From Bacillota bacterium (lineage in GTDB: Bacteria > Bacillota_I > Bacilli_A > RF39 > UBA660), in the NCBI GenBank assembly GCA_015059285.1, contig SVAS01000001.1:327291-391290 (forward strand): a stretch of DNA of 64,000 bases. The letters are read 5' to 3'. Positions 7,368-52,374 of this stretch are shown in pieces. The notes under the pieces are model-generated. The model worked only from the letters and a program-made list of their open reading frames with translations, had not been told where the DNA came from and ran no database searches. Position numbers and translations under genes: made by a program. Numbering within the stretch: the stretch's first letter is position 1; the number at the start of each line of letters is the position of its first letter.

Positions 7368-7402
7368 TTATGTAAATTAAAATTACTGTTAAAGCAGTAA
7401 TT

Positions 7403-7428
7403 TTTTTGTTTATATAATTAAATTGTAT
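7403..7428 (+). terminator. Rho-independent terminator (ATTACTG-TTAAAG-CAGTAAT plus T-run)
   Basis: Inverted repeat and TTTTTTT after the FMN-binding gene stop. Confidence 0.6.
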
Positions 7429-7783
7429 TAGCATATTTTATGTCGTATAATGTATATAATAGCAAGCCTTTTAGCTATGAGTATATAAATGAAATTAAAA
7501 ATAGAATTTTTGTAGTTAGTAGTATATTTCTATTTTAGGTGATTTATATTATTTAGCTGTAAAAATAAATGATACATAGATTTTGCAGTATTTTCTAGTA
7601 TGTATTTATAAGGAATTGCTCTGAAATGAGGAATTCAATGATAATTAAAAAATACTGCACTAAAAAATTATTGTTTCAAAACTTAAAAAAATGTAAAGCA
7701 AATTGTTTTTCAATTTTAATATGGAAAATAATTTGTTTTTGTTTTGTAATAAAAGGTAAATCTAATTGTAGATCACCCCCTTT

Positions 7784-7812
7784 TATCAATTTAATACGAA
7801 ATTAAATTGATA
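7784..7812. promoter_or_regulatory. Perfect 12-bp inverted repeat TATCAATTTAAT-acgaa-ATTAAATTGATA, candidate operator ending 1 nt before the RBS of the sigma-like regulator gene
   Basis: Seen directly in the sequence: the right arm is the exact reverse complement of the left arm, ends 1 nt before GGAGG, and is 13 nt upstream of the ATG at 7825. Confidence 0.55.
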
Positions 7813-7824
7813 GGAGGAATATAT

Positions 7825-8310
7825 ATGGCAAAAATGCCTAAAAGAAGAAAAAATAAGGATAATCCTTATACTCTAGAATACATAGAAGATAAAAACATTT
7901 ATAAAGTTAATTTTAAAGATAACAAAGGAAAATTAAATACGTTAGAAATAAGTGCTGATGTATATAAAGCAATGGATAAATTTGAACTAGAAGACATATC
8001 TCAAATGCATCAATTTGAGCGTCATATAGAACATTCTGAACTATTTGAAGGAACATTAAATGAAAGAGCTGTGGACAAGCCTCTTGCAGTAGAAGAAATA
8101 GTTGAAAATACTATTATAAATGAAGAACTTATAAGGGCAATTGGTGGTTTATCGGAAGTACAAAAAAGAAGAATAAAGTTATATTATTTTGAAGGTTTAA
8201 CACAAAAAGAAATCGCTAATAGAGAAGGAACTTCTTTGAGGGCAGTACAATATACTTTAAATAGCGCAATTAATAAATTGAAAGAAATTCTAAAAAATTT
8301 GCAAATTTGA
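7825..8310 (+). CDS. Sigma-70 region-4-only transcriptional regulator, phage ArpU/RinA-like or TcdR-like late/toxin-gene activator
   Basis: C-terminal HTH LSEVQKRRIKLYYFEGLTQKEIANREGTSLRAVQYTLNSAINKLKE is sigma region 4-like. No region 2 recognisable. Start trimmed to MAKMPKRR after GGAGG. Confidence 0.6.
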   Translation: MAKMPKRRKNKDNPYTLEYIEDKNIYKVNFKDNKGKLNTLEISADVYKAMDKFELEDISQMHQFERHIEHSELFEGTLNERAVDKPLAVEEIVENTIINEELIRAIGGLSEVQKRRIKLYYFEGLTQKEIANREGTSLRAVQYTLNSAINKLKEILKNLQI

Positions 8311-8337
8311 CTTCGTAAAATTGCTTTTGAGTGGGGA

Positions 8338-8374
8338 AACAGGTGAAAGGATAGATTGTATCCTTTCACCTGTT
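8338..8374 (+). terminator. Very strong 14-bp perfect hairpin (AACAGGTGAAAGGA-tagattgta-TCCTTTCACCTGTT) with a weak U-tract; terminator or RNA-processing/regulatory stem-loop
   Basis: Perfect inverted repeat 27 nt after the regulator stop; the downstream T-run is poor (CTTTGAAAA). Confidence 0.5.
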
Positions 8375-8687
8375 CTTTGAAAATTGAATAATGATAATTG
8401 AATACATAATGCTTCTTTTAAGCACGTTAGTAAGTTCGCTTGCGACTAATACTTGACTATGAATGCTAACAGATTATTAGCAATGCAATGATGAAGAAGT
8501 GTGATAATGATACTTCCACCTAGCGACAGTCTCAAACAATCGGAGTGGTTCTGATAAATACAGAAAGGTGAAATCCCTATGGTGCTGACATATCATCAGC
8601 CATTCAATTATCATGTGTAATAAAATTTTAGAAGAATTGCTAAATATTAGACTAAAACATAAAAAATATAGAAAGGTCGTGTAACGT

Positions 8688-9287
8688 ATGAACGAAACAG
8701 AACAAACTACAACTAATACAGGAGATTTTACTTTAGAAGATATTTATTTTAAAGATGCATTTACCCAAACTGAGGATAAATTAAATTTAGAAGTTGATAA
8801 TGCAAATATTAGTTGTTTAACTTCAAAAAACAATAAATTTAGTCTAGATGAGGATGGAAATTTAATTGTTAATAGCATCACATGCAGTCAAAGTGGGGAA
8901 ACAAGTGAAAGTTTGGATTTTAATCAAATATATCCAATTGGGTCAATTTACTTATCGGTAAACGATAGCAACCCTTCAATTTTATTTGGTGGTATTTGGG
9001 AACAACTTAAAGATCGTTTTTTGTTGGGTGCGGGAGATAATTATGCTAATACTTCTACTGGTGGTGAAGCATCTCATATTTTAAGTGTGTCAGAAATGCC
9101 GGCTCATAATCATAGAATTGGTTATGACCAAATATGGGGATATGGTGGTACTGCAAGTATTGCTTTAACTTCTGGTGGACCTTATTATGTGAGTTCAACA
9201 AATTATATTGGAAACACTGGCGGAAATCAAGCACATAACAATATGCCGCCTTATTTAACCGTATACATGTGGAAAAGAGTTAGTTAA
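8688..9287 (+). CDS. Phage tail-collar domain protein (tail-fiber-like, receptor-binding-type module)
   Basis: YPIGSIYLSVNDSNP..FGGIWEQLKDRFLLGAG....GGEASHILSVSEMPAHNH....GGNQAHNNMPPY matches the Collar domain consensus (G.W..L..RFLLG...GGE..H.L...EMP.H.H). Confidence 0.75.
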   Translation: MNETEQTTTNTGDFTLEDIYFKDAFTQTEDKLNLEVDNANISCLTSKNNKFSLDEDGNLIVNSITCSQSGETSESLDFNQIYPIGSIYLSVNDSNPSILFGGIWEQLKDRFLLGAGDNYANTSTGGEASHILSVSEMPAHNHRIGYDQIWGYGGTASIALTSGGPYYVSSTNYIGNTGGNQAHNNMPPYLTVYMWKRVS

Positions 9288-9336
9288 TTAATATATTACA
9301 ATTCTTCTAAAATGTATAATTTAAAGGAGAAATTTT

Positions 9337-12300
9337 ATGAAAGAAATAGAATTAAAAGAGTTAAGAAAAAAAAGAGAGAAACATTTTCTACAGGAAAATG
9401 GTAATATCGTAGCAAAAATATATGATGATGATGTACATTTTTTTAAAGATGGAAAATATGAAGAAATTGACAACACAATAATAATCAAAGATAATTACTA
9501 TACCAATAAGAGTAATGATTATAATGTATATTTTGGTAATGATAGTTATTTGATGAGAATGGAAAAAGATGATTGTTTTCTTAAATTTAAATTAGAAAAT
9601 GGTAATCATGATATAGTAAAAAAAGAAAACGGAAATGTTTGCTATGAAAATATATTAGATAACGTAGATATAAAATATTTTATTAAGTCTAATAAAGTTA
9701 AAGAAGATATTATTATTAAAAACAAAGAGGCAAACATTAAAAAAGTAAGTTTTATTATTGAAACCAACTTATCTTTATATGTGGTTAATAATAAAATTAA
9801 TGCGTTTAAAAATGATGATATTATTTTTGTTTTAGATGCTCCTTTCATGTATGATGCTAATGGTAACATAAATAAAAATATTTATTATGAATTAAAAAAA
9901 ACAGACAATCTTTATAAATTAGATTTGACATTAGATGAAAAATGGTTAACCCAAGCTGCTTATCCAGTTATAATTGACCCTACTATTACTGAGTATAGTG
10001 AAAATGATAGTGTAGTTGACACTTATATTTATCCTGGGGATACTGGTGTTGATAGAAATAGTCAGGACATTTTAAAAGCTGGTGTTGAAAGAATAAATGG
10101 CGTAGATAGAATTAATAGGACTCTATTAAGGTTTAACTTGCCGGAAATTGGAACCGGTAGCCAAATTATTAAAGCAGAATTGAGATTAATTGGTTACCCA
10201 CATATAGGAGAAACTTCTGAAAGTGATATCGTAAACATTCATAGTCTTACAACAGAATGGGAAGAAGATGAAGCTAATTGGGAAAATATGAATGATAAAT
10301 TTAATCCTAGATTAGAAGGTTCTTTCTATAGTGCCAGAAGTGTTAGAATGACATTAGAAGATGTTACTCCAAGAGAATGTACAGAAGATATAACAAATTT
10401 AGTAAAGAAGTGGTATTCAAGTAAAGAAAATTATGGAATAATGCTAAAAATGAATACAGAAGTGTATAGAAGTGACGTTATTCCAGCATTTTTTTCAAAA
10501 AACAATTCAGTATCTAATTATAATCCTAAACCACTTTTAGCAATTACATATAGAAACCAGAATGGTTTGGAAGATTATATGAATTATAAGAAACAAGCAT
10601 TTAGTAATGGAATGTCATATGTTAATACTTACAATGGAAATTTAACTACAATTTTTGATGTTGGTGCAACTATTGGTGGGATTAATCCGGTTAATTTAAG
10701 TTTAGTCTATAATACTAACGATGTTGTGTTGGAAAATAATTTAGGTGATGGTTTAGGATATAGATTTAATTTTAATCAAACGATAAAGCTCTTACCAATA
10801 GAAGAAGTTGAATATTTAGAATATATTGATGGTGATGGAACAATTCATTATTTTTACGAAACTGATGGAATCTACAAAGACGAAGATAACTTAAATATGA
10901 TTATAACTAAAGTTAATAATGAATACATTTTAGCGGATAAGAATGATAATAGAATGAAATTTGCAATTATCAATGAAGTTGGCTATTTAACTGAATTAGA
11001 AAATTTGAACCATGATAAAATTCAAATATTATATAATTCTAATAATCAAATAATAAAGATAATAGATCCAAATCTAGAAGAAATAAATATTTCAAGAGAA
11101 ACAAATAAAACAATCATTAGTAGTCCTGGAAAAACAGCTAATTTGATTTATAACGGAAATAAGCTCATATCTATACAAACTATTTTAGGTAATACAACAA
11201 TTACATATAATGATAAAAATATTATAGAAAGTATAACAGATGAGAATAATCAAAAATTGGCATATCAATATTATGAACAACAACCTTATCGTATGAAGAC
11301 AGTGACCGAATATGGCTTAAACAACGAAATGGGTAATTATTTTACTTTAGAATATAATTTTAATTCAACAACTATAGTTGATAATAAAGATAGAGCAAAT
11401 ACAATGACTTTTAATAATTTTGGAAATGCTGTTTCTATTACAACCTTAAAATCTAAAGAAGATGTAAAAGAAGCGTATGGGAAAAGGCTAATTTATGGTA
11501 GTAGTTATATAACTTCAGAAGGAGAGTATGCGCCTTATAAAAACAAACTACTTAACGAAGAAGTTTTTAATAAATGTATCAAAAATCACTTTCCTAACTC
11601 TAACTTTGAGGAAGATGACTTTGTATTTACCCCATGCGCGAACAATATTTTATACATTGTTGATGACGAATACTTAGAAGGTCCAAAATCTTTAGCGTTT
11701 ATAACTAAAGATTATAATCAATATATAACAAAAACAATATCTGTCCCTAAAGGAAAATATTACACATTTAGTTTTAATTTAATCAACCACATGTCTTTTA
11801 CAATATCACTTTCATATAAGGATGCCAATGATTATACTGTTAGCGAACGAACTTATGTTGACTATATAAATTTAGAATTTGAAAAACAGGAAGTAAGCAT
11901 TTTCTATCCTGAAGATGCAAAATCAGATTTAACAATAATGATTTCCGCTTATGAAATGGGGACATCCTATATAAATTCTATTCAATTAGAAGAAGGTGAT
12001 GTTGCTAATAGTTATAATTACATTTCTAATTCAGATTTTTCAAATGGTCTTAGTGACTGGGAATTAAGAGCACAAATTAATGATCAAGGGGACTATGTTA
12101 ATGCTGATGATAAATTTGAAGTAGTTACATTAGACAATGGATTAAATGCACTTAAAGTCAAGATGAATCCACTATATTCTACTGGTTTTTCAAAAACGTT
12201 TAAAGTTAGAGGTAAACCTGGTGATATTTTTACAATTGCTTTTTGGTATAAACATCAAGGATATAAAGGTTCGGATTACGCACAAGCGCCGAGACATAAT

Positions 12301-15300
12301 AACGTTATTATTAGATTTAACTATATTGACCAAAGTTATGGACATTGTATATCACCAAGTAGTTCATTTAATCCGAATGAAAATGAATGGCAATATTTTT
12401 CTGCCGATTTCGTAGCAGAAAAAGAATTTGATTCACTATATTTATCATTTTCACAAGGTTTTAATGGCAATGATTTTTATATAACTAATTTAAGTTTAGT
12501 TAAAGATAGTGGTAGTGTTAGTTTTAATTATGATGAAAAAGGAAATATAATTGGAAAGAGCGGTTTAAATAACGAATTAAGCGAATTTAATTATGATAAG
12601 AATAATCAATTAATAAAAATGACTGATTCCATGGGAAACAATCACACGTTTGAATATGATAAAGATGTTAGTGATAGAGTTATAAATGGCATATCTGCAA
12701 CTGGCATATCTAATAAAATAAAATATAATAGCGATGGAAATCCAATTGTTACAAAAATAGTTAATCATGGTAAAAATGAAGAAATATTATCCGGATTTTA
12801 TAAAGTTAAAGCAAAAGGTGCTAATAAATATATAAAAAACAATTATAACGTTTTAATATTAAAAGAAACTAATTGTAATCATCATTTATGGTTGCTTGAA
12901 AAAGTTGATGAAAACTATAGGATAAAACATTCTTTATTAAATAAATATATAAATATTTTGAATAATACGTTAATATTATCAGAAGAATATGCATTATTCA
13001 GTTTAATAAAAAATCAATGTAATAGTTTTTTGATCAAAGAAATAGAAAGTGGTAACTACATTAAAAACAATAATGATGTATTGGAAATTACTTCTTTGAT
13101 TGAAGATGATGATAGTTTTGAATTTTATTTTGAAAATGGAAACGAACTATTTATAGAAAACAACGCTGAATATACATCGGATAAAAGATTTATTAAAGAG
13201 ACTACGGATACTTTATTACATAAAACAGAATATGAAGTTGATGAGGGGACTGGATTAATTAAATCCGTAATAAATCCTAAAGGACAATTAACAACTTATG
13301 AATACAACGATAAACAACAATTATCAAAAATAATCACTAATGCAAAAACTATTGATTATGTTTATAATAGTAACAATTTGTTGGATAAGATAGTAGAAGG
13401 TAACAAAAGCTACCAATTTCAATATGATAATTTCTTAAATGTTAATCAAATTAAAATTGGCGATAATATTACCTTAATAACCAATAATTATGCACCAAAT
13501 AATGGAAATTTAATTAATTCAGTATATGGAAATAATGATATTGTTAGTTATGAATATGATGATTTTGATAGAGTCAGCAAAATATTTAGAATGAATGATA
13601 CCTATAATTATAAATATGATAATAATGGTAATGTTGCAAAAGTTTTTGGCAATGTAGACAAATGGAAATATTTCTATGATTCTGCCAAAAGACTGAATGA
13701 ATATAGATTAAATAATTTTAAAATAAAATATTTTTATGATAAAAATGATAACCTATATAGAAAAACTTATTGGCTTGATGACACAAATATCAACATTTGG
13801 AATAATGTACCTAGCTCAAGAATAGCTATTTATGGTATAGAGCAAATCAACGAATTTAATGATGATGACTGTATTACAAAAACGACAATAGGAAATGTTT
13901 CTCTTGATTATGATTATGATTATTTAGGTAGATTAACAAGCAGAAGTATAAATAATAATTATAAAACAGATTATCAATATGTAACTAATGGCAAAAGAAC
14001 ATCACTATTAGTAAAAAGTATTAAAAACAATAATGATTTATATAATTACAGATATGATAAATTAAATAATATCACTCACGTATATTACAACAATAGTCTT
14101 ATAAATAGGTATTATTATGATGAGTATAATGAACTTATTAAAGAAAACAATTATGTAACTAATGAAACAACAGAATATACTTATGATAACTATGGAAACA
14201 TATTAAATAAAAAAGTATATGCATTAAATACTAATAACTTATTAAGTCAAGACACTTATGAATATAATAATTCTAATTGGGTTGACCAATTAACTAGATT
14301 TAATAATGAAACTATCGTGTATGATGAAATAGGAAACCCACTTGCTATTGGTTCAAAAACATTATCATGGATAAACGGAAGACAATTGAGTGGTTATAAT
14401 GACTCAACAATTAATGCTAACTACAGATACGATAAAGATGGATATAGGATAAGTAAAATTGTAAATAATCAAGAAACAAAATATTACCTTGAAAATAATA
14501 AAATAATACTTGAAATTAAAGGTGATGATATTATATACTATATGTATAATGAAGTTGATGACATAATAGGATTTAAATATAATAATGATGTATATTATTA
14601 TATAAAAAATGTTAAAAATGATATAATTGGTATATTAGATAGCAGTCATACTCAAGTCGTAAAATATAATTATGATTCTTGGGGCAATATTATATCAATA
14701 ACAGATAATAATAATAATGACATAAGTAATACTTTAAATCATATAGGCAATATTAATCCATTTAGATATAGAAGTTATTATTATGATTCGGAAACAAATT
14801 TTTATTATTTAAACTCAAGATATTACAATCCTGTTTGGGGTAGATTTTTGAATGCTGATGGCATTGTTAATGATGGAGAAATTATAGGCTGCAATTTGTT
14901 CGCTTATTGTAATAATAATCCTATAAATTTAGTTGACCCTACTGGAGAGCTTGCACTTGCAGGCACTATAGGCGGAGTTTTGGGTGTGGTTGCAATTGTT
15001 GGTTCTATTTATTATGCAAGCAAAAGTCTGATAAAAAGTGCCACAAGTATTCCGAATGTAATATATGATACTAAAACAAAAATAGAAAATGCTATTGGTT
15101 CCATAGAGATTAACAAAACAGAAACTAAAACACAAACGCCTGCAATATCCGTTCCTAAAATAGAAAGTATTGACTTGGGCACACCTAAGTATAAACCTTG
15201 TACTGAGGCATGGCTATCTAATGGCGACGTGGCAAGAGGAAATAGATTAACAATTGATGAATCATATATCCATGTAAGCAATGGTCATGATGTAATGTGT

Positions 15301-15456
15301 GACAATCAGTTTTCTGCACATCAAGTAGCACAAAGATTTGTTGGTTATATTGGTCCGGAAATAGACAAAAAACAATTGCCTGGCAATAAGTATTATTGTC
15401 ACTATCATCCGGATAGAACGTCGCATAGACATATTTGGTTCTATTCAATGCAATAA
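9337..15456 (+). CDS. RHS/YD-repeat polymorphic toxin, 2039 aa. No signal peptide. N-terminal DNRLRE-like domain, about 30 YD repeats, RHS core ending at a DPTGE autoprocessing motif, then a C-terminal TM helix and a toxin tip of unknown family.
   Basis: Repeated YxYDxxGN/R motifs (e.g. YDEIGNPLAIGSKTLSWINGRQLSGY...YRYDKDGYRISKI). RHS core signature YYNPVWGRFLNADGIV...NPINLVDPTGE. C-terminal 170 aa comprise LALAGTIGGVLGVVAIVGSIYY... through ...YYCHYHPDRTSHRHIWF. Confidence 0.9.
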   Translation: MKEIELKELRKKREKHFLQENGNIVAKIYDDDVHFFKDGKYEEIDNTIIIKDNYYTNKSNDYNVYFGNDSYLMRMEKDDCFLKFKLENGNHDIVKKENGNVCYENILDNVDIKYFIKSNKVKEDIIIKNKEANIKKVSFIIETNLSLYVVNNKINAFKNDDIIFVLDAPFMYDANGNINKNIYYELKKTDNLYKLDLTLDEKWLTQAAYPVIIDPTITEYSENDSVVDTYIYPGDTGVDRNSQDILKAGVERINGVDRINRTLLRFNLPEIGTGSQIIKAELRLIGYPHIGETSESDIVNIHSLTTEWEEDEANWENMNDKFNPRLEGSFYSARSVRMTLEDVTPRECTEDITNLVKKWYSSKENYGIMLKMNTEVYRSDVIPAFFSKNNSVSNYNPKPLLAITYRNQNGLEDYMNYKKQAFSNGMSYVNTYNGNLTTIFDVGATIGGINPVNLSLVYNTNDVVLENNLGDGLGYRFNFNQTIKLLPIEEVEYLEYIDGDGTIHYFYETDGIYKDEDNLNMIITKVNNEYILADKNDNRMKFAIINEVGYLTELENLNHDKIQILYNSNNQIIKIIDPNLEEINISRETNKTIISSPGKTANLIYNGNKLISIQTILGNTTITYNDKNIIESITDENNQKLAYQYYEQQPYRMKTVTEYGLNNEMGNYFTLEYNFNSTTIVDNKDRANTMTFNNFGNAVSITTLKSKEDVKEAYGKRLIYGSSYITSEGEYAPYKNKLLNEEVFNKCIKNHFPNSNFEEDDFVFTPCANNILYIVDDEYLEGPKSLAFITKDYNQYITKTISVPKGKYYTFSFNLINHMSFTISLSYKDANDYTVSERTYVDYINLEFEKQEVSIFYPEDAKSDLTIMISAYEMGTSYINSIQLEEGDVANSYNYISNSDFSNGLSDWELRAQINDQGDYVNADDKFEVVTLDNGLNALKVKMNPLYSTGFSKTFKVRGKPGDIFTIAFWYKHQGYKGSDYAQAPRHNNVIIRFNYIDQSYGHCISPSSSFNPNENEWQYFSADFVAEKEFDSLYLSFSQGFNGNDFYITNLSLVKDSGSVSFNYDEKGNIIGKSGLNNELSEFNYDKNNQLIKMTDSMGNNHTFEYDKDVSDRVINGISATGISNKIKYNSDGNPIVTKIVNHGKNEEILSGFYKVKAKGANKYIKNNYNVLILKETNCNHHLWLLEKVDENYRIKHSLLNKYINILNNTLILSEEYALFSLIKNQCNSFLIKEIESGNYIKNNNDVLEITSLIEDDDSFEFYFENGNELFIENNAEYTSDKRFIKETTDTLLHKTEYEVDEGTGLIKSVINPKGQLTTYEYNDKQQLSKIITNAKTIDYVYNSNNLLDKIVEGNKSYQFQYDNFLNVNQIKIGDNITLITNNYAPNNGNLINSVYGNNDIVSYEYDDFDRVSKIFRMNDTYNYKYDNNGNVAKVFGNVDKWKYFYDSAKRLNEYRLNNFKIKYFYDKNDNLYRKTYWLDDTNINIWNNVPSSRIAIYGIEQINEFNDDDCITKTTIGNVSLDYDYDYLGRLTSRSINNNYKTDYQYVTNGKRTSLLVKSIKNNNDLYNYRYDKLNNITHVYYNNSLINRYYYDEYNELIKENNYVTNETTEYTYDNYGNILNKKVYALNTNNLLSQDTYEYNNSNWVDQLTRFNNETIVYDEIGNPLAIGSKTLSWINGRQLSGYNDSTINANYRYDKDGYRISKIVNNQETKYYLENNKIILEIKGDDIIYYMYNEVDDIIGFKYNNDVYYYIKNVKNDIIGILDSSHTQVVKYNYDSWGNIISITDNNNNDISNTLNHIGNINPFRYRSYYYDSETNFYYLNSRYYNPVWGRFLNADGIVNDGEIIGCNLFAYCNNNPINLVDPTGELALAGTIGGVLGVVAIVGSIYYASKSLIKSATSIPNVIYDTKTKIENAIGSIEINKTETKTQTPAISVPKIESIDLGTPKYKPCTEAWLSNGDVARGNRLTIDESYIHVSNGHDVMCDNQFSAHQVAQRFVGYIGPEIDKKQLPGNKYYCHYHPDRTSHRHIWFYSMQ

Positions 15457-15482
15457 TTAAAATAGAAATTGGGGGAATTTAT

Positions 15483-16238
15483 ATGTATATAAACAAGGTA
15501 ACTACTGAGGTTTATAAAAAGATACTTGATTATAAGTTAGAAAAGTGCAATTATGCATCTTTGACTGTATATACAGATCAACATTTAGATGAACATCTAG
15601 ATATTATTAATATTATTACATCCAATCCTAAATACTCTAAACAATATATTTTATCTAATTATTCAGAAATACTGTTAGGACAAATTTATAATGATTTTAA
15701 GAATGATAAAAGAATATATAATGTTAAGGAACATGTAAGAAAAATAAAAAAAAGTTCTTTTAGAAAATGTGAATCTAATGATGAATTGGAAAACTTTCTA
15801 TATCAGCATGAATCTGAAAATAGAAAATCATCTATATTTAGCGCCATACAAAGCTTTGTTTATAATAATTTTACAACCCAATTTATTGAAGAATATAGGA
15901 GTAAAATTGTAAAAATAAAGGATGAATTATATGAGCATGAACTCACACCATTCCATAAAAAAGAAGCGTTTTATAAAAAAGAATATATATTTCAGCTTGA
16001 TGATGAATTAAAACAAATTATACATAACACTTATTTATATGACTGGAGTTTTCCAATGAAATTAGAAGATTTAAGCTTGTTTGTTGAAAATTATTTGTGG
16101 ATATATTCAGTTACACATGAAGAACTATGCTATATTTATTGTGAAACAGAGGAAGAATATAATTATTTAAAATCAATGGGTGTTGAGTTCTATGAAGAAC
16201 ACTTTATTCCACAAGAAAAGCAAGAAATCGTTTTTTAA
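15483..16238 (+). CDS. Putative cognate immunity protein for the RHS C-terminal toxin (cytoplasmic, 251 aa)
   Basis: Sits immediately downstream; the long ORF's ATG at 15435 overlaps the RHS stop. The likely true start, ATG at 15483, follows RBS GGGGGA. No TM or signal peptide. The toxin-then-immunity order is typical. Confidence 0.6.
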   Translation: MYINKVTTEVYKKILDYKLEKCNYASLTVYTDQHLDEHLDIINIITSNPKYSKQYILSNYSEILLGQIYNDFKNDKRIYNVKEHVRKIKKSSFRKCESNDELENFLYQHESENRKSSIFSAIQSFVYNNFTTQFIEEYRSKIVKIKDELYEHELTPFHKKEAFYKKEYIFQLDDELKQIIHNTYLYDWSFPMKLEDLSLFVENYLWIYSVTHEELCYIYCETEEEYNYLKSMGVEFYEEHFIPQEKQEIVF

Positions 16239-16253
16239 TAAAATAAAACAAAA

Positions 16254-16283
16254 AACAATCAAATTAAATTTGATTGTTTTTTG
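16254..16283 (+). terminator. Rho-independent terminator (AACAATCAAAT-TAA-ATTTGATTGTT plus T-run) separating the toxin-immunity unit from the lysis cassette
   Basis: 11-bp perfect inverted repeat followed by TTTTT. Confidence 0.6.
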
Positions 16284-16466
16284 TATATAGGATATGATAT
16301 TTGAAATCAAATATAACACACAATATATTCTATAGTTTATGATGGATTTGATGGTATGATAATGATTAAATAAAAATTTATGCAGTAATATAATAGTAAA
16401 CATTTTAAAAGGACACAATCTTAAACTTGATTAAGTCTTTTTATTTTTATTATGGAGGTGATATAT

Positions 16467-16772
16467 ATGATAGAAATAATATGTAGATATTGGCTAGAAA
16501 TATTATTAACTACTATCACAAGCGGTTTTATATATGTTATCAAAGAACATATAGGATTAAAAAATGGAGTGAAAGCTTTACTTAGAAATGAGATAGTTAG
16601 AATATATGAAACGTATTCTAAATTAGGATATTGTCCAAGTTATATGAAAGAAAATGCAAATGAAATTTATATTAATTATCATAGATTAGAAAAAAATGGT
16701 ATGATAACATCTATGCTAGAAGAAATAAATAAATTACCTGTTGAGATAAAAGTGGAGGTTATAAATGCATAA
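16467..16772 (+). CDS. Small N-terminally membrane-anchored protein, holin-associated (phage lysis-module accessory protein)
   Basis: Start trimmed to MIEIICRYW.. (ATG at 16467 after GGAGGTG). One N-terminal TM segment. Its stop overlaps the holin start. Confidence 0.45.
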   Translation: MIEIICRYWLEILLTTITSGFIYVIKEHIGLKNGVKALLRNEIVRIYETYSKLGYCPSYMKENANEIYINYHRLEKNGMITSMLEEINKLPVEIKVEVINA

Positions 16773-16995
16773 AATTTTAAACGACAAGTATGTAAGTAAA
16801 ATTATAAAAACATTTATTGAAGGTTTTCTTGCATCTTTAATTGTAAGTTTTCAGACCATAGAAAATTTATCTGATTTGAATTTAATTAAAACAGTATTAG
16901 TTGGTGCAATTGCTATGGGGATTTCAGCTGTACTAAACTTATTTCAAATGTATTTAAATAAAGAGAAAGTTGAATATGGAAAAAGCAATACTTAA
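16765..16995 (+). CDS. Phage holin, phi-LC3/LL-H-like family
   Basis: 76 aa. SKIIKTFIEGFLASLIVSF fits the ..KTF.Q.F.A.L motif of this holin family. Two hydrophobic segments and a charged C-terminus (NKEKVEYGKSNT). Confidence 0.65.
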   Translation: MHKILNDKYVSKIIKTFIEGFLASLIVSFQTIENLSDLNLIKTVLVGAIAMGISAVLNLFQMYLNKEKVEYGKSNT

Positions 16996-17782
16996 TTTAG
17001 ATATATTAAATATAAGTCAAGGAATGAATGATAGCTTTTCCCATCCAGGTAATTTAGCAATAGATGTAACAGGTTGTTCTTATTTAAAAGCCCCATTTAC
17101 AGGTGTTATAAAAAAGATTTATTCAGAGTGCAATGCTGTTTGGCTAGAAAGTGTAGAAAAGGTAGAGTATGCAGATGGAACTATAGATTATATGACAATT
17201 ATGACAATGCATGATAATGATATATCAGATCTTTATGTTGGTAAATTAATAAAACAAGGAGATATATTTTATCAACAAGGAATGAAAGGTTACGCAACAG
17301 GACCACATATTCAGATTTCAGTAGGAAAAGGTAAATTTAGTGGTTCGGGTTGGTATGAAAATAAACAAGGTTCTTGGTGCATTAATAATCAATATGATAT
17401 AACTAGGGCACTATTTTTACACACCGATGTTAGAATAATTTATAGTATGTATAATTGGAAAATAACTGTTTATTCAAAACTTGTTAATAAAAATAAGTCT
17501 ATTGATGAAATGGCTAATGAAGTTATTCAAGGTAAATGGGGAAATAATCCTGAAAGAAAACAAAGATTAATTCAAGCTGGATATGATTATACAGCTATAC
17601 AAAATAGAGTTAATGAGTTATTAAGTACTTCATCTGAAATAATACATACAGTAGAAAAAGGCGAATATTTAATCAAAATAGCTGCAAAGTATAACAAGAA
17701 TTGGCGTAAAATTGCAAGCGATAATAATATAAAATCTCCGTGGATAATATATCCAGGGCAAAAGTTAATAATATATAAATAG
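16976..17782 (+). CDS. Endolysin: N-terminal M23 metallopeptidase domain, CW_7 (Cpl-7) cell-wall-binding repeat, C-terminal LysM
   Basis: M23 HxxxD/H.H-type motifs (SFSHPGNLAIDVTG; GPHIQISV). CW_7 repeat DEMANEVIQGKWGNNPERKQRLIQAGYDYTAIQ. LysM HTVEKGEYLIKIAAKYNKNWRKIASDNN...YPGQKLII. The ORF-track start is a TTG at 16970; the ATG at 16976 with RBS AAGAGAAAG is preferred. Confidence 0.8.
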   Translation: MEKAILNLDILNISQGMNDSFSHPGNLAIDVTGCSYLKAPFTGVIKKIYSECNAVWLESVEKVEYADGTIDYMTIMTMHDNDISDLYVGKLIKQGDIFYQQGMKGYATGPHIQISVGKGKFSGSGWYENKQGSWCINNQYDITRALFLHTDVRIIYSMYNWKITVYSKLVNKNKSIDEMANEVIQGKWGNNPERKQRLIQAGYDYTAIQNRVNELLSTSSEIIHTVEKGEYLIKIAAKYNKNWRKIASDNNIKSPWIIYPGQKLIIYK

Positions 17783-17789
17783 TTGAGTG

Positions 17790-17819
17790 AGATAACCATT
17801 TTGGTTATCTTGCTTTTTT
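17790..17819 (+). terminator. Rho-independent terminator after the endolysin gene (AGATAACCA-TTTT-GGTTATCT plus T-run)
   Basis: Inverted repeat followed by TGCTTTTTTATTT. Confidence 0.6.
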
Positions 17820-17896
17820 ATTTGGTAAATTTCACGTTTTTTTCTTGACTAAATAGTTTTTTTAATATAAACTTATTTAGGATGCTAGGTGATGAT

Positions 17897-18595
17897 ATGA
17901 AAAAAATATTAATATTAATTACACTAATGATTGTTACTTTATTTAGTTTTTTTTCATTTAAAGATAAAAATAAAATTGAAGCAAAAGAAGAAAATCTTTG
18001 TATAAAAGATTGTATGTCTGGTGATAAAATTAGACTAAAAGATGGTAGTTACTGGCATATAATTACAACTTCTTCTGAAAAAACAATTTTATTTAGTGAT
18101 GCAAATATTGATTTAGAAGGTAATTATTTACCTGTAAATTATATGAGTTATGAAAATACTGGACAACCTGTAGCATTTGACACAATAAATGCTAGAACAA
18201 AAGAAAAAAATCCTTATTGTATTTATCCTGATTTAGGTTGTAGTGCTTATGAAAAAAATGCTAAAGATGTTTTAGAAGATAGTAATATTAAAAAAATAAT
18301 TGATGAAAATTTTGTTCCTAAAATTCAAGAATTATTTAAAACGGAAGATATAACAGTAAGACTTTTAAAAACAAAAGAATTTTGGTATTTACAAAGATTA
18401 GAAGTTATAAAAGAAGAAAAATTTTCTTGGTTATATCATAGTGCTTATTGGCTTATGGACGCGTATAGTCCTTATAGTGTATATTTATTAAAAGAAGGGG
18501 ATAAAAGTCTTTCTGTTTTAGCGCCTTATATTTTATATCAAGCTGGAATTAGACCGGTTATCGAACTTGATTCAAATCTTTTATTTGAAGCTTAA
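17897..18595 (+). CDS. Secreted/exported hypothetical protein (signal peptide) at the island edge
   Basis: MKKILILITLMIVTLFSFFSF signal-like N-terminus; no family recognised; start trimmed to the ATG at 17897. Confidence 0.5.
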   Translation: MKKILILITLMIVTLFSFFSFKDKNKIEAKEENLCIKDCMSGDKIRLKDGSYWHIITTSSEKTILFSDANIDLEGNYLPVNYMSYENTGQPVAFDTINARTKEKNPYCIYPDLGCSAYEKNAKDVLEDSNIKKIIDENFVPKIQELFKTEDITVRLLKTKEFWYLQRLEVIKEEKFSWLYHSAYWLMDAYSPYSVYLLKEGDKSLSVLAPYILYQAGIRPVIELDSNLLFEA

Positions 18596-19563
18596 TAAAA
18601 AATATTAAATAAAAAGTATACTAACGTTCCTGAAATTAAAGCATGAATAATACGGGCAAATAAAAACGGCAAATATTTAATTTTAGTATCACCTAAAATA
18701 CTCATTATTTGCATATGCCCACTTAGTCCACCAAAAGAAATAATCATTGTGCATATAGTTGTTTTTATTTTAAGAGATATTGGCAGATTACTTATAGATT
18801 TTAATCCTTGTGTTATTTCAAAAATACCATTTAAGATACTTTGACGGTATAAACTTAAATTAATATTGCAATTAATGATAGTTGTAATAACTAAAAAGAA
18901 AGTTATTACTCCTAATATTAAAAGTAATGTATTAATAGTATTAATTAAAGAATTAGTAAGAATGTTTCCAAAACTTTTATTATTACTAATTCTTTTATTA
19001 TGCATAGCTAAAATAGCTTTTTGAAAATTTATTTTTGTATTATTTTCTTTTGTAGGATAATAATTCCTAAATATAATTCCAATAATAATATTAGCTATAT
19101 AGTGACAAAATAGGATTAAAATACCAACATTTTTATTATTTAAAAATAAAATTGAGACAGTGCCTAAAATAAATAGAGGATTAGAAAAATGGGTAAACAT
19201 AAGTAGTTTAGTACCTTCTTTTTCATCTATAAGATTGTTTTGATATAATTCTTTTATATACTTGGCATTTGATGGCATTCCTGATATAATACTCATTATA
19301 AAGATAAATGAACAAACACCCCTTGTTTTAAATAATAAGTTCATTAAGGGTTTGAAAATTTCACTTAATAATTCTACAAATCCATAATTAATTAATAGTT
19401 CGGATAAAACAAAAAAAGGAAATAGAGATGGGAAAATATTATTTTTCCATATATCAAACGAAAAGGCTACAGAAGTTAAAATATTAGAAGATCTTATTAG
19501 TATTTGGCTTCCAATAAATATTAAAATTATTATAATAATAATACTGGTACTAATTTTTTTCAT
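18592..19563 (-). CDS. ylbJ: Sporulation integral membrane protein YlbJ (nucleoside-recognition-domain membrane protein)
   Basis: Polytopic membrane protein with YlbJ-like sequence (..GVCSFIFIMSIISGMPSNAKY.., ..SGHMQIMSILGDT..) and conserved adjacency to ylbL. Confidence 0.65.
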   Translation of the reverse strand: MKKISTSIIIIIILIFIGSQILIRSSNILTSVAFSFDIWKNNIFPSLFPFFVLSELLINYGFVELLSEIFKPLMNLLFKTRGVCSFIFIMSIISGMPSNAKYIKELYQNNLIDEKEGTKLLMFTHFSNPLFILGTVSILFLNNKNVGILILFCHYIANIIIGIIFRNYYPTKENNTKINFQKAILAMHNKRISNNKSFGNILTNSLINTINTLLLILGVITFFLVITTIINCNINLSLYRQSILNGIFEITQGLKSISNLPISLKIKTTICTMIISFGGLSGHMQIMSILGDTKIKYLPFLFARIIHALISGTLVYFLFNIFY

Positions 19564-26612: not shown

Positions 26613-26799
26613 GAGCCTTTATTTTTCAAAGGAAAAATTGACTTTTGACTAAAAATATGATATAATTACTCTACATCTAGAAAAAGACATAAATCAAATT
26701 AAAAAATTGATTATTACATTTTTATTTAACAAATTTGATTTAAGTTGACAAGTAGGGATTATTGTGGTAGTATATACCGTACTCAAAGGGGGAATTTAT

Positions 26800-28080
26800 A
26801 TGTATAATGAAAGATATGAGAGTAAAAAAGATGGTTTTTCTATTAAAGATATAATCGTCCAATTATTATTTATTGTATTATTTGTTTTTATCTTAATTTG
26901 GTTATTTCCAACTAAAAATAGCTTAAATGGAAAATTTGATTCAATTGATAAAGTAAATGAAAAGTTTGATGTTTTAACAAATCGTATTTTTAATGATAAT
27001 CTTCAAACAATGAAAGATGCTGCTATAAATTACTATACAACACCAAGATTACCAAAAAATGTTAACGATGTTAAATCAATGACTTTGCGTGAAATGCTTA
27101 AAGAAAAATTATTGGTTGAATTTAAAGATGCTAACAATAAATCATGTGATTTAGATGATTCATATGTAGAAGTTACAAAACTTGATGATGAATTCTTATT
27201 AAAAGTTAATTTAAGCTGTACTGATAATGATGCATATATTTTAGTTCATTTAGGATGTTATGATTATTGTAGTACTGATGTTTGTGAAAAGAAAGATACA
27301 AAAACAAATCCTGTTGTAAATGTACAACCAACTGTAACTCCAAGTGTTCCAAGTAAACCAAGTACTCCAGTGCAAAAAACATGTTCTTATAAATATCAAA
27401 AAGTAGTTACTGATTCTAAATGGTCTGGCTGGTCAAAATGGTCTACAAAACAAGTGAGTGCTACAAGTACTAGAAAAGTAGATACAAAAACAGAAGTTGA
27501 AACTGTATATAAAGACGTATTAAAAGGTTACCAAAAAACAACTTATAGAGATATGGATAATCCAATTGTTGAAAATGTTCAAGTTCAAACTGAAACTGTA
27601 AGTTCAACATACTGTACATCTTATACATCTCAATATACATCTACTGGTCAAAAGAAATATGAATGGATTGATCAAGGTACTTCTTACTACAATTCACAAC
27701 CTCAACCAGATTCAAATACAAAATATGAATATGTAGGAAAAACTACTGTTGACTGTGCTGATTGTTATAATGGGGTATTATATATTTATAGAAAATATAC
27801 TTTAAAAGTTTATGATGTTGTTTCTGCTAATAGTGTATGTGCTTCATGGGGAACTGTCTCAGCTCCTATTTATATAACTGTACCAAAAATCGTAGGTTAT
27901 AACACATATACAAAAGTAGTTCCTGTTTATGAAAAACAACAAGTAACAGAAAAAGTTAAATACTATAGATATAAAACTTTATCAACTACTAGTGAAACTT
28001 TAACAAAATGGAGTTCAAGTAGTAATGATACAACTTTAATCAATCAAGGTTATAAATATGTAACTAGTGTTTGTAACTAA
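26800..28080 (+). CDS. Hypothetical membrane-anchored protein with a Cys-rich module and a Thr/Ser/Tyr-rich C-terminal region
   Basis: Start trimmed to MYNERYE after RBS AAAGGGGGA. One TM segment. CTDNDAYILVHLGCYDYCSTDVCEKKD cluster. No family recognised. Confidence 0.5.
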   Translation: MYNERYESKKDGFSIKDIIVQLLFIVLFVFILIWLFPTKNSLNGKFDSIDKVNEKFDVLTNRIFNDNLQTMKDAAINYYTTPRLPKNVNDVKSMTLREMLKEKLLVEFKDANNKSCDLDDSYVEVTKLDDEFLLKVNLSCTDNDAYILVHLGCYDYCSTDVCEKKDTKTNPVVNVQPTVTPSVPSKPSTPVQKTCSYKYQKVVTDSKWSGWSKWSTKQVSATSTRKVDTKTEVETVYKDVLKGYQKTTYRDMDNPIVENVQVQTETVSSTYCTSYTSQYTSTGQKKYEWIDQGTSYYNSQPQPDSNTKYEYVGKTTVDCADCYNGVLYIYRKYTLKVYDVVSANSVCASWGTVSAPIYITVPKIVGYNTYTKVVPVYEKQQVTEKVKYYRYKTLSTTSETLTKWSSSSNDTTLINQGYKYVTSVCN

Positions 28081-28100
28081 TAGAAAGGGGTACAATCATT

Positions 28101-40265: not shown

Positions 40266-40714
40266 TTTTCTCGCTCTTTTTTATTAGAAATAATGAGTTG
40301 TTCTAAAGTATCAAGAAATATTTTATTTATTTCTTTAGTTCTTTTTTTAAGCTTTTTAGTTTTAATATTTTGTTTTCTATTTAAAATATTTAAGTATCTT
40401 TGTTCTAATAAAGTATCAATATTTTTATTATCATATACTATACCGCTTGGACTTATTACTAAAGAGTTTTTAGACAAACCAATACAAGCTAGTCCATAAT
40501 CTGCTGTAATCAAAAGATCATTTGTTTTGATGAAATTACTTATAGCTATATCAACCATTTGATATCCTTCGCTAATATAATGAATTTCAGCATTAATTAT
40601 ATTAAGATTATGGTTATAATCACAAAAAAGATGACACTCAATATTATTTTTAAAAGCTATATTAGTAATACTTTCTAATGAAGGACAAGCATCCGCATCT
40701 ACAATTATTCGCAT
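40262..40714 (-). CDS. YaiI/YqxD-family protein (DUF188/UPF0178)
   Basis: N-terminal MRIIVDADACP motif characteristic of the family; 150 aa. Confidence 0.75.
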   Translation of the reverse strand: MRIIVDADACPSLESITNIAFKNNIECHLFCDYNHNLNIINAEIHYISEGYQMVDIAISNFIKTNDLLITADYGLACIGLSKNSLVISPSGIVYDNKNIDTLLEQRYLNILNRKQNIKTKKLKKRTKEINKIFLDTLEQLIISNKKEREN

Positions 40715-52297: not shown

Positions 52298-52374
52298 TGG
52301 TAGCGAGAGAGGGACTTGAACCCCCGACTTTTCGGGTATGAACCGAACGTTCTAGCCAACTGAACTATCTCGCC
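52298..52374 (-). tRNA. tRNA with CAT anticodon (Met / fMet / lysidine-modified Ile2 type), 77 nt with encoded CCA
   Basis: Reverse complement GGCGAGATAGTTCAGTTGGCTAGAACGTTCGGTTCATACCCGAAAAGTCGGGGGTTCAAGTCCCTCTCTCGCTACCA folds as a cloverleaf: D-arm AGTTCAGTTGG, anticodon loop TTCATAC, T-loop GGTTCAAGTCC. Confidence 0.85.

Follow-up and report, generated by a model that had tools for sequence, protein, structure and literature searches.

The PaLoc of Clostridioides difficile carries TcdR, the toxins TcdA/B, the holin TcdE and the endolysin remnant TcdL. In the Bcn5 locus of Clostridium perfringens, a leaderless toxin is encoded with the sigma factor gene uviA, the BhlA-type holin gene uviB and an amidase endolysin (PMC9527704). 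Yersinia Tc toxins, which have a TcB/TcC cocoon of the Rhs type, are released by a holin/endolysin/spanin T10SS; in Yersinia entomophaga these lysis genes form YenLC, with the regulator RoeA (PMC10847048). Other Rhs toxins are Sec-dependent, such as WapA and its like in Bacillus subtilis and Streptococcus suis (PMC12704120). A preliminary description of the locus studied here likened it to PaLoc and held that release by a lysis cassette had not been described for RHS toxins. Bcn5 already shows the same logic of sigma factor, holin and endolysin (PMC9527704), and the YenTc T10SS makes the second statement too strong (PMC10847048).

The locus lies in a window of 64,000 nucleotides (the whole stretch of DNA analysed) from an uncultured gut Bacillota bacterium. 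As judged by homology to a copy at another locus (L007), the conserved unit extends from 7440 to 17822 (10.4 kb). We propose, with a probability of roughly 0.55, that this cassette is a self-contained, horizontally mobile unit whose bacteriocin-like Rhs toxin is freed by programmed lysis of the producer. Its features are as follows.

7440-7824, + strand: left end of the unit, regulator upstream/promoter region (blastn block 78% identical with L007, continuous from 7440)
7825-8310, + strand: sigma-70 region-4-only regulator, 161 aa (PF08281 1.6e-9, PF04545)
8311-8640, + strand: conserved non-coding element (hairpin, box, multi-helix structure, pemK motif)
8688-9287, + strand: tail-collar (Gp10_C) protein, 199 aa (PF21939 5.7e-22; PHROG tail-fibre families)
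9337-15456, + strand: leaderless polymorphic Rhs toxin, 2039 aa (DNRLRE domain 3.7e-21, Rhs_assc_core 8.3e-19, RHS_repeat)
Within the toxin, aa 1-215: N-terminal beta domain
Within the toxin, aa 229-398 (nt 10021-10530): DNRLRE/CBM96-like glycan-binding module
Within the toxin, aa ~1167-1264 (nt 12835-13128): beta-trefoil lectin
Within the toxin, aa ~1286-1870: Rhs shell
Within the toxin, aa 1867-1871 (nt 14935-14949): DPTGE cleavage-type motif
Within the toxin, aa 1872-2039 (nt 14950-15453): variable C-terminal toxin
15483-16238, + strand: cognate immunity protein, 251 aa, without TM segment (co-occurrence with the C-terminal toxin)
16248-16284, strand not assigned: perfect 18-nt palindrome between the toxin/immunity and lysis operons
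16467-16772, + strand: holin-associated membrane protein (hap), 101 aa, one N-terminal TM segment (phrog_4105 1.6e-14)
16765-16995, + strand: putative class-II holin, 76 aa, two hydrophobic/TM segments and a charged C-terminus (phrog_443, weak, E = 0.002)
16976-17782, + strand: endolysin, 268 aa, M23-like endopeptidase with CW_7 and LysM (CW_7 3.5e-18, LysM 8e-12)
17785-17815, + strand: strong intrinsic terminator at the right end of the unit, a 14-bp stem then a T run (L007 homology stops at 17822)

All seven ORFs between 7825 and 17782 (7/7) were found where the preliminary description had placed them, on the + strand. Its 11-kb island survives as the recurrent unit 7440-17822 but not in its full extent, as the 232-aa gene at 17897-18595 falls beyond the stretch common to the window and L007, and the homologues found for it were all in contigs identical to the window. 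The FMN-binding gene preceding the unit has a terminator at 7379-7404. G+C is flat at ~25%, so there is no compositional island, and a clean empty site is not demonstrable because the only relatives found had at most 55% identity. As previously reported, capsid, terminase, portal and tail-tube genes were found neither in the Pfam annotation of an identical contig (the window up to ~25.4 kb) nor among 20 larger ORFs sampled from 25-64 kb. Purifying selection acts on every cassette gene (dN/dS 0.09-0.24). The host forms spores, and ylbJ, spoIIGA, sigE and sigG lie near the cassette.

The 2039-aa DNRLRE-Rhs protein is one of a family of polymorphic toxins; it has at least 593 relatives among species-representative genomes, nearly all of which are gut Bacilli MAGs. 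Its N-terminus, MKEIELKELRKKREKHF, is conserved family-wide. No signal peptide was found in the family, with a hydrophobic N-terminal stretch in 0/119 full-length homologues, so the earlier account of a giant leaderless RHS protein holds. We infer that the toxin is unable to use the Sec pathway.

The immunity gene proposed downstream is likewise supported by its strict pairing with the toxin. Whilst no family match was found for the 251-aa protein, in other loci a homologue follows seven of the eight ORFs that bear a homologue of the window's C-terminal toxin, the lone exception being an ORF whose contig ends 411 nt away. Immunity homologues outside this pairing were absent from the other loci. 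The L007 copy of block 7440-17822 is carried by a conjugative element, and only the toxin tip and immunity gene have been swapped: identity to the window is 78% over 7440-14859 and 92% over 16437-17822, whereas the tip and immunity gene are unrelated. At L042, orphan toxin/immunity modules lie between the Rhs core and copies of the hap 5' end. The palindrome at 16248-16284 could be either a terminator or an operator.

The tail-collar protein is the most constant partner of the toxin: of the 49 full-flank loci drawn from species-representative genomes, 42 have its gene adjoining the Rhs gene. Leftover phage debris, considered as an explanation for this gene, was rejected on that count. The fibre-like character first ascribed to the protein is borne out by PF21939 and the PHROG tail-fibre families, and antireceptors of Lactobacillus delbrueckii phages are 47-50% identical to it in their C-termini. 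Conservation is seen over residues 30-65, and residues 141-175 form a hypervariable loop region. In L061 the head of the collar shares 68% identity with the phage tail protein of that element itself. The collar protein is thus a phage receptor-binding-protein homologue, and we propose that it would associate with the toxin as its targeting partner. Natural collar-Rhs fusions were looked for and none was found.

In the regulator, PF08281 and PF04545 cover residues 106-160 and only the C-terminal half of TIGR02937 is matched. The region-4-only assignment therefore stands, but the ArpU/TcdR kinship first suggested was not found in the tests run. The protein is 89% identical to the L007 copy (dN/dS 0.09). 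Its paralogues adjoin serine recombinases and PemK in conjugative-element regulatory modules, each then followed by the same ~300-nt structured element. In the window this element comprises a hairpin (8338-8374), a near-invariant GTTCTTTGA(C/A)AAT box and a ~250-nt multi-helix structure, the 3' part of which (8504-8582) is the pemK motif (Rfam RF02913; 48.2 bits, gathering score 34.8). Searching with nhmmer gave 21 hits in 18 sources, 17 of them directly 3' of a called sigma_r4 gene, and RNAalifold gave 48 pairs, 41 with compensatory double changes. Regulator and pemK-motif leader together look like a conjugative-element module. The palindromic operator of the preliminary description exists as a perfect palindrome (16 nt, directly 3' of the sigma gene) but, at 8338-8374, resembles a terminator more than an operator.

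Downstream, hap has homologues in gut Dorea and Clostridium phages, one annotated as a holin, and at 11 loci it precedes the holin gene. It has no Pfam match at E <= 0.01, and a BhlA-type holin was therefore not detected. The next gene overlaps both its neighbours; two TM segments and its place beside the endolysin favour the original holin call, whilst its family match is weak. Most lysis-bearing loci have a small membrane protein just upstream of the endolysin, and in 15 loci Phage_holin_4_1 holins replace the window type. The M23/CW_7/LysM endolysin was correctly named: the Pfam M23 model gave no hit, but a match to the M23 domain of phi29 gp13 (3csq, 1.6e-14) was obtained for the N-terminal domain, and one to Cpl-7 (5i8l) for the CW_7 region. 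Identity to the L007 copies is 95% for hap and 93% for the endolysin, with dN/dS of 0.10 and 0.14, respectively, and 0.13 for the holin.

Across the family, an endolysin of one of at least six catalytic types occurs near the Rhs gene in 25/49 loci. In the other 24/49 no recognisable holin or endolysin was present within ~5-6 kb of the Rhs locus, the distance over which absence was scored, and the neighbours are housekeeping genes. Lysis cassettes thus often accompany the toxin in cis, but the family can do without them there. Loci with an upstream sigma-region-4 gene are followed by a holin and endolysin in 11/11 cases, and a downstream endolysin is found in 11/11 loci with the sigma gene against 14/38 without it (Fisher p = 2.4e-4), counts which are not fully independent because the loci come largely from MAGs and have shared ancestry. 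The order sigma_r4, collar, Rhs, immunity, small membrane protein(s) and endolysin recurs in three unrelated neighbourhoods. Rhs orthologues at these loci are 72%, 51% and 43% identical to that of the window, and the endolysins are M23+CW_7+LysM, M23+LysM and GH25; an amidase, phrog_291, phrog_8781 and phrog_894 occupy the same position elsewhere. A permuted second architecture (HTH regulator, hap-like protein, holin, lysin, collar, Rhs) directly adjoins housekeeping genes, among them those for RNase J and Pol IV. Copies in conjugative elements carry the lysis genes too.

The cassette might instead be a decayed prophage end, a collar-Rhs-immunity moron beside a tail-fibre/lysis module that has lost its structural genes and whose lysis genes have no dedicated release role. 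This alternative, already raised in the preliminary description, does hold for some relatives. Both L061 and the IMG/VR contig L087/L095 have a phrog_372 tail protein, two holins and a lysin ahead of collar, Rhs and immunity genes, with a major-tail-protein match upstream, and the lysis linkage there could be inherited synteny. The collar, hap, holin and lysin genes also have phage homologues. However, at least 11 species share the cassette order although their lysins and holins are not orthologous, and the cassette is also found within conjugative elements and as an immediate neighbour of housekeeping genes. In this architecture the lysis genes follow the toxin, but they stand before collar and Rhs in L061 and L087. 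The lysis genes are moreover under purifying selection (dN/dS 0.10-0.14) and better conserved between window and L007 than the toxin body (92% against 78%). We thus consider a prophage end quite improbable for the cassette; the comparisons speak for a unit that recurs and is kept by selection, not for random decay of a prophage.

The half of family loci with only collar, Rhs and immunity genes would also suit another, unrecognised exit route, or a toxin with no action until the cell dies or the mother cell lyses in sporulation, as could happen in a spore former with sporulation genes near the cassette. On this view the collar would act as a chaperone or assembly factor and not in targeting, while the lysis genes would benefit the mobile element, e.g. 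in DNA release. We judge this distinctly unlikely, given the lysis genes in 11/11 sigma-type cassettes, the hap 5' end as downstream recombination flank of orphan toxin modules, and the receptor-binding pattern of the collar, with a conserved shaft and a variable head common to a phage tail protein. Recurrent order, changing endolysin types, the 11/11 sigma loci and purifying selection make functional coupling of the leaderless toxin to the phage-derived lysis module the best reading. The recurrence of this gene combination in many gut bacteria makes a lysis-released bacteriocin-like weapon the most likely function. Release by a lysis cassette, as first proposed, thus gains from the recurrent linkage and purifying selection and is weakened by the 24/49 loci without lysis genes.

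For release by programmed lysis, the gene content suggests the following scheme. The sigma-region-4 protein and the structured leader 3' of its gene would turn on the collar-Rhs-immunity operon, and the same protein may also turn on the hap-holin-endolysin operon. The 230-kDa Rhs cage would fold in the cytoplasm with the C-terminal toxin inside, any free toxin being neutralised by the immunity protein. The holin and M23/CW_7/LysM endolysin would then breach membrane and wall, and we infer that toxin leaves by lysis of the sacrificed cell. Outside, the CBM96-like DNRLRE module, beta-trefoil and collar would bind surface glycopolymers of related bacteria, the probable targets, so that the Rhs lectin-like modules and phage-derived collar would set the target range, and the variable C-terminal domain would kill cells lacking the cognate immunity gene. 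In a less likely variant, export would use a local wall lesion and spare the producer. Holin(s) and endolysin would open a local passage for the folded Rhs, as proposed for TcdE-TcdA/B and Bcn5; holin-dependent non-lytic export has been proposed for clostridia (PMC9527704), and two small membrane proteins (hap and holin) could modulate pore behaviour. The endolysin is however complete, with two wall-binding modules, and YenTc, the best-studied Rhs-type case, was shown to be lytic (PMC10847048). No feature in the sequence distinguishes the two modes, and we regard non-lytic export as unlikely.

Like PaLoc, the cassette combines phage lysis genes with a sigma-like activator of its own and with one or more large leaderless toxins, in a setting free of phage structural genes. 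The PaLoc-like logic first suggested holds to that extent but not for the regulator, in which the tests run showed region 4 alone and yielded no match to the TcdR family. PaLoc toxins are moreover glucosyltransferases directed against host cells and have no immunity gene, whilst the window has one, and TcdL is a fragment whereas the window endolysin is intact. Bcn5 is similarly a Gram-positive leaderless bacteriocin tied to its own sigma-type regulator, holin and endolysin. It differs from an Rhs cage in being a ~100-kDa bacteriocin of peptidoglycan-hydrolase type. UviA belongs to the TcdR family of sigma factors and has both regions 2 and 4, and the receptor-binding partner and polymorphic toxin tip of the window are lacking from Bcn5.

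WapA resembles the window toxin in its YD/Rhs shell, the DNRLRE domain in its N-terminal region, its polymorphic C-terminal toxin, downstream immunity gene and orphan modules. WapA has a Sec signal peptide, wall-anchoring domains and contact-dependent action, whereas the window family is leaderless and linked to collar and lysis genes. In R/F-type pyocins, diffocin and monocin, phage-derived receptor-binding proteins set the killing spectrum as proposed here, and phage-tail-like bacteriocins and colicin lysis proteins likewise involve a dedicated lysis cassette or protein and loss of the producer cell. The cassette has no tube, sheath, baseplate or tape-measure gene, and its killing moiety is an enzyme-carrying Rhs cage instead of a membrane-puncturing tail. 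The YenTc T10SS is like the cassette in its very large signal-less toxin around an Rhs-type cocoon (TcB/TcC), its phage-derived lysis genes outside any phage, a dedicated regulator that couples toxin and lysis, and the sacrifice of a subpopulation. YenTc is however Gram-negative, requires spanins, forms a tripartite A-B-C complex and targets insects, and its lysis cassette is not beside one toxin/immunity pair. By contrast, the cassette joins a single-chain polymorphic Rhs and its immunity gene to a phage receptor-binding homologue in a Gram-positive host, with the lysis genes inside the same 10-kb mobile unit.

An FMN-binding lipoprotein gene, whose terminator is at 7379-7404, and the convergent sporulation gene ylbJ (18592-19563; TIGR02871, 1.9e-72) enclose eight plus-strand ORFs:

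7825-8310, plus strand: regulator with sigma-70 region 4 only (sigma_r4), 161 aa (PF08281, PF04545)
8688-9287, plus strand: Gp10_C/tail-collar protein ("collar"), 199 aa (PF21939, 5.7e-22; PHROG tail-fibre families)
9337-15456, plus strand: Rhs protein, 2039 aa, with DNRLRE (aa 229-398), Rhs repeats, Rhs-associated core (aa 1779-1870) and a 168-aa C-terminus
15483-16238, plus strand: 251-aa protein without family match
16467-16772, plus strand: holin-associated protein (hap), 101 aa, one TM segment (phrog_4105)
16765-16995, plus strand: 76-aa protein with two TM segments and a weak holin match
16976-17782, plus strand: endolysin with CW_7 and LysM, its N-terminal domain resembling the M23 endopeptidase domain of phi29 gp13 (3csq, 1.6e-14)
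17897-18595, plus strand: 232-aa secreted or membrane protein without family match

Searches of Pfam, NCBIfam and PHROG gave no match for the 251-aa and 232-aa proteins and a single PHROG family, function-less in annotation, for hap; a Pfam search assigned no family to the C-terminal toxin of the Rhs protein. In the existing annotation of an identical metagenome contig, the neighbours on both sides are housekeeping and sporulation genes only, with spoIIGA, sigE, sigG, ApbE and NusG_II on one flank and ylbJ, a Lon-like protease, mutS, nusB and xseA beyond. None of 20 further ORFs sampled from 25-64 kb had a phage structural match. The ORF content, the housekeeping flanks and the lack of structural matches in the ORFs sampled therefore confirm the gene content of the preliminary description, including its absence of phage structural genes.

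Within the window, and on the ORFs checked there, an intact or recently decayed prophage was considered and rejected. Within 7 kb upstream and in the ORFs checked over 45 kb downstream we found no integrase, att repeats, packaging, capsid or tail genes, other than the window's sole integrase gene (47411-48658), which lies 29 kb off on the opposite strand. This tyrosine integrase (minus strand; PF00589, 2.6e-27) is 3.6 kb from the window's only tRNA gene (tRNA-Met, 52298-52374, minus strand), and an XRE-type repressor-like gene and an Amidase_3 protein are nearby (45003-45872 and 40705-41985, both minus strand). The region may be a separate small integrated element. A compositional island was also rejected, as G+C is flat at ~25% across the window. 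The only stretch with raised G+C (0.29-0.32) is 26764-29840 (plus strand), where adjacent ORFs of 438 and 579 aa lack Pfam or PHROG matches. A promoter scan returned 96 sites against 95 expected and was uninformative because the DNA is AT-rich. The source organism is known from metagenomes only, and a metagenome scan with the flanking FMN-binding protein returned only relatives of up to 55% identity, from which an empty site or indel between this gene and ylbJ is not demonstrable. In the contig of the best relative (L098), unrelated housekeeping genes lie between the two.

The limits of the cassette were set by blastn against L007, a locus whose Rhs protein is 72% identical (L-numbers denote loci carrying relatives of this gene). 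Positions 7440-14859 form a single block 78% identical to L007, 14860-16436 (toxin tip and immunity gene) show no similarity, and 16437-17822 (hap, holin and lysin) are 92% identical, ending at a terminator (17785-17815). This delimits the transferable unit as 7440-17822. Outside the shared block, between the cassette terminator and ylbJ, is the 232-aa gene, whose 3' end overlaps that of ylbJ by 4 nt and whose product has an N-terminal hydrophobic segment. This gene is missing from the L007 cassette, and all contigs in which it was found are identical to the window. Nei-Gojobori dN/dS against L007 was 0.09 for the regulator, 0.24 for the collar, 0.17 for Rhs, 0.10 for hap, 0.13 for the holin and 0.14 for the lysin, while dS was ~0.27 in the lysis module versus 1.06 in Rhs. 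All cassette genes are, on this comparison, kept by selection, in modules with separate recombination histories.

The Rhs protein has the shell, core, cleavage-type motif and variable tip of a predicted Rhs/YD polymorphic toxin, with a putative immunity gene directly downstream. It matches RHS_repeat (5.9e-16) and, over aa 1779-1870, TIGR03696 (8.3e-19), with a DPTGE cleavage-type motif (DPxG(L)-type) at aa 1867. A PDB profile search placed the shell at ~aa 1324-1875, matching solved shells (e.g. 8h8a at 2e-38), and assigned aa 1167-1264 to a beta-trefoil lectin. Modelling of the first 430 residues gave beta-sandwich and CBM96-like domains. There were 700 protein matches at E <= 1e-20, the best 120 being nearly all ~2000-2170 aa long and 43-72% identical over ~92% of length with divergent C-termini. 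Among the listed homologues these C-termini match Ntox44, Tox-REase-7, AHH, PF15654 or Hydrolase_2, or have no known domain. When a single genome was scanned for each species, at least 593 relatives emerged, almost entirely from gut MAGs named 'Bacilli/Tenericutes/Mollicutes bacterium', Acholeplasma sp. CAG:878, Clostridium sp. CAG:1000 and Candidatus Coprovivens.

The N-terminus of the family is conserved and charged (MKEIELxELRKKREKHFLQENG). A simple hydropathy test, not SignalP, found no hydrophobic segment in the first 45 residues of any of 119 full-length homologues. The lack of a signal peptide thus characterises the family, and a WapA-type, Sec-dependent Rhs protein was rejected. Nor did Pfam or NCBIfam match LXG, WXG, PAAR, VgrG or secretion-system genes on the Rhs protein or its neighbours, which argues against a T7SS (LXG/WXG) or T6SS (PAAR/VgrG) effector. 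The preliminary claim of a toxin lacking both a signal peptide and such a context is thereby upheld. Several glycan-binding modules on a protein made in the cytoplasm imply an extracellular job.

Six other loci hold, between them, eight ORFs with a homologue of the window's C-terminal domain. In seven cases a homologue of the 251-aa protein comes next, the eighth ORF lying 411 nt from a contig end, and no homologue of the 251-aa protein occurs elsewhere in the loci examined. The 251-aa protein is thus, by co-occurrence with the toxin tip, the putative cognate immunity protein. Arrays of orphan Rhs C-terminal/immunity modules are present in L042 (800-5500) and L083 (16800-20700). The orphan modules of both loci have the 3' end of the Rhs core upstream, and those of L042 have copies of the hap 5' region as their downstream flank. 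This suggests that tips may be swapped by recombination between the Rhs-core 3' end and hap 5' end, with the start of the lysis operon as the handle for recombination on the downstream side of the polymorphic locus.

Three orthologues checked in their contigs each comprise sigma_r4, collar, Rhs, small immunity-like gene(s), small membrane protein(s) and endolysin, in neighbourhoods that all differ:

L007: Rhs 72% identical; inside a conjugative element (VirD4, VirB4, PrgI, TrbL, then PemK and integrase); CW_7 and LysM endolysin
L008: Rhs 51% identical; chromosomal; M23 and LysM endolysin, with a Phage_holin_4_1 holin
L009: Rhs 43% identical; chromosomal; GH25 endolysin

We then drew loci from the best 80 of the at least 593 relatives, called ORFs in 75 of them and labelled these by phmmer and clustering; counts use the 49 loci whose contigs extend 3 kb or more upstream and 4 kb or more downstream. 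The collar gene is beside the Rhs gene in 42/49 loci (median gap ~16 nt). An endolysin gene lies within ~5-6 kb in 25 (18 downstream, 7 upstream), and a holin or hap homologue is present in 27. All 11 loci with an upstream sigma_r4 gene have a downstream endolysin, compared with an endolysin in 14/38 loci without one (Fisher p = 2.4e-4, counted over related loci that are mostly MAG contigs). PHROG added four further endolysin types in the same position (L070 amidase, L021 phrog_291, L030 phrog_8781, L049 phrog_894). That non-orthologous endolysins replace one another at a fixed position indicates that lytic function itself is selected. A second architecture runs HTH regulator, hap-like, holin, lysin, collar, Rhs and immunity (L017, L020, L037, L079 and others); it adjoins RNase J or DNA polymerase IV and so is also not a prophage end.

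Apparent phage homology of the neighbours was traced to tblastn matches in contaminated or unannotated 'phage' records, a PDB sequence search identifying RNase J and Pol IV. The phage-labelled records matching these two proteins, including OR844988.1 (a 386 kb 'Staphylococcus phage'), evidently contain bacterial chromosomal sequence, so matches in that collection need care. GenBank 'Bacteriophage sp.' contigs with Rhs matches (MT835902, MT836326) are unannotated, unverified and of higher G+C, and were set aside.

In 24/49 loci collar, Rhs and immunity genes are present and lysis genes were not found nearby. A Pfam scan of 142 neighbours from 27 loci without a homologue of the window endolysin recovered two GH25 proteins only, the rest being mostly housekeeping enzymes. 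Release in those 24 loci must therefore use something else or genes in trans. In L061 and L087/L095 the relatives follow the lysin at the end of a probable prophage, the classical moron position. The window cassette has the gene set of a type 10 secretion system (T10SS): an intact endolysin and a putative holin, assigned by topology, position and a weak PHROG match. By the window ORFs checked, the putative holin and the peptidoglycan hydrolase lie outside a functional prophage, and their linkage to the cargo recurs across species. The comparative evidence thus backs the core of the preliminary description, a leaderless Rhs toxin coupled to a lysis cassette.

By contrast, its likening of the regulator to TcdR of PaLoc needs correcting. 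Only region 4 was detected (residues 106-160), TIGR02937 aligns with the C-terminal half only, and the listed family matches include no TcdR-type family. A group-5 sigma factor (TcdR/UviA/BotR/TetR) was rejected because region 2 was not detected by sequence and the matches listed show no family-level similarity. ArpU (TIGR01637) is not among the best 25 of 42 NCBIfam matches. Paralogues of the regulator belong to conjugative-element modules.

Directly 3' of sigma_r4 is a conserved non-coding element of ~300 nt (window 8311-8640, plus strand). Its parts, and copies in other loci, are:

8338-8374, plus strand: variable terminator-like hairpin (part 1)
Part 2: near-invariant box GTTCTTTGA(C/A)AAT, also given as GTTCTTTGACAAT
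Part 3: multi-helix structure of ~250 nt, with compensatory changes at 41/48 predicted pairs
L007 19637-19957, L010 20641-20959, L021 20885-21170: element copies
L043 19998-20325, L049 19446-19752, L053 12004-12339: element copies, with others elsewhere

The Rfam pemK motif (RF02913; 8504-8582, 48 bits) covers only the 3' part of this larger conserved element, which gives the orphan RNA motif a defined genetic context. With nhmmer we found 21 matches in 18 sources, 17 of them directly 3' of a called sigma_r4 gene. The element precedes either collar-Rhs or, where it occurs in conjugative elements, PemK toxin/serine-recombinase modules. Since both it and sigma_r4 precede such modules there, the regulatory module appears to be borrowed from conjugative elements. 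The element might act as a leader RNA or in single-stranded DNA form. In many cassettes without a sigma gene (L013, L014, L016, L031, L051, L055), a ~250-aa protein (cluster 8) is encoded upstream of the collar; a TM segment is predicted for most members, and the one member tested begins with an HTH_3 domain. This protein may be a membrane-bound alternative to the sigma_r4 regulator.

The preliminary description listed the collar as a tail-fibre-like protein. That role must be revised, the gene adjoining Rhs in most loci. No tail, baseplate or capsid genes were found in the window ORFs checked or in most related loci, and a virion or tail part was rejected on these grounds. The collar shares 47-50% identity with the receptor-binding C-termini of Lactobacillus delbrueckii phage antireceptors, and it aligns end to end with the last third of streptococcal prophage tail proteins. 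It is 45% identical to the L061 phage tail protein, and the head domain of the L061 collar is 68% identical to that of the 649-aa phage tail protein encoded by the same element. Residues 12-65, at the N-terminal end of the collar, are missing from the L061 phage protein and 85% identical between distant cassettes. In the 38 short-form homologues compared, conservation covers residues 30-65 and the collar core, and residues 141-175 are hypervariable. The collar thus has the sequence pattern of a receptor-binding protein, a constant attachment part with an exchangeable head. We infer that it probably associates with the Rhs protein and sets target range; no natural collar-Rhs fusions, which would be Rosetta-stone evidence of interaction, were found. 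Tandem collar genes occur in several loci (three downstream of Rhs in L078; two in L034, L046, L018 and L039). Long-form collars of 380-400 aa are found in L010, L030, L044, L047, L049, L063 and L081. In most of these loci a further small ORF of ~120 aa (cluster 4), without family match, separates collar from Rhs; its product might be an assembly chaperone.

We propose tentatively, at a probability of roughly 0.35, a new and previously unrecognised class of bacteriocin, widespread in gut Bacilli: a collar-guided Rhs cage, or 'tail-less tailocin', released by its own regulator and holin/endolysin module. A trimeric phage receptor-binding protein would dock onto the lectin-decorated cage and steer it towards competitors' cell-wall glycopolymers. 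Production and release of the complete particle would both depend on the dedicated module, which would travel with the particle genes on conjugative elements, prophages and free islands. If true, this would account for both exit and target finding of signal-less Gram-positive Rhs toxins.

Rhs toxins are among the most widespread bacterial weapons. To our knowledge, every well-understood case uses a secretion machine: T6SS, T7SS, Sec or a Tc A-subunit. In the present family, mostly from uncultured gut Bacilli, signals for all four are missing, and the Rhs gene is instead linked to the gene of a phage receptor-binding homologue and, in roughly half the loci, to a holin/endolysin pair. If the model holds, type 10-like lysis release would extend to antibacterial polymorphic toxins of Gram-positive bacteria, phage receptor-binding modules would be reused in a new way, strain-level gut competition would gain a testable mechanism, and the swappable toxin tip and binding head could be engineered.

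The preliminary description held that such release had not been described for RHS toxins; this priority claim falls, as an Rhs-containing Yersinia Tc toxin is released by a T10SS (PMC10847048). Known Gram-positive Rhs toxins (WapA) use Sec signals (PMC12704120), whereas hydropathy detected none in the present family. A 2012 survey of polymorphic-toxin trafficking does not mention holins, and our full-text literature search found no link of Gram-positive Rhs/YD toxins to holins, endolysins or receptor-binding proteins, an absence that is not proof. The cassette shares its logic with the Yersinia Tc system, with the Bcn5 locus and its UviA, UviB and endolysin (PMC9527704), with PaLoc and with colicin/tailocin release. 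Lysis release by the cassette is predicted from gene content and by analogy. Unlike all of these known systems, the cassette joins a single-chain polymorphic Rhs toxin and its putative immunity protein with a phage receptor-binding homologue, in Gram-positive gut bacteria and in one compact mobile unit.
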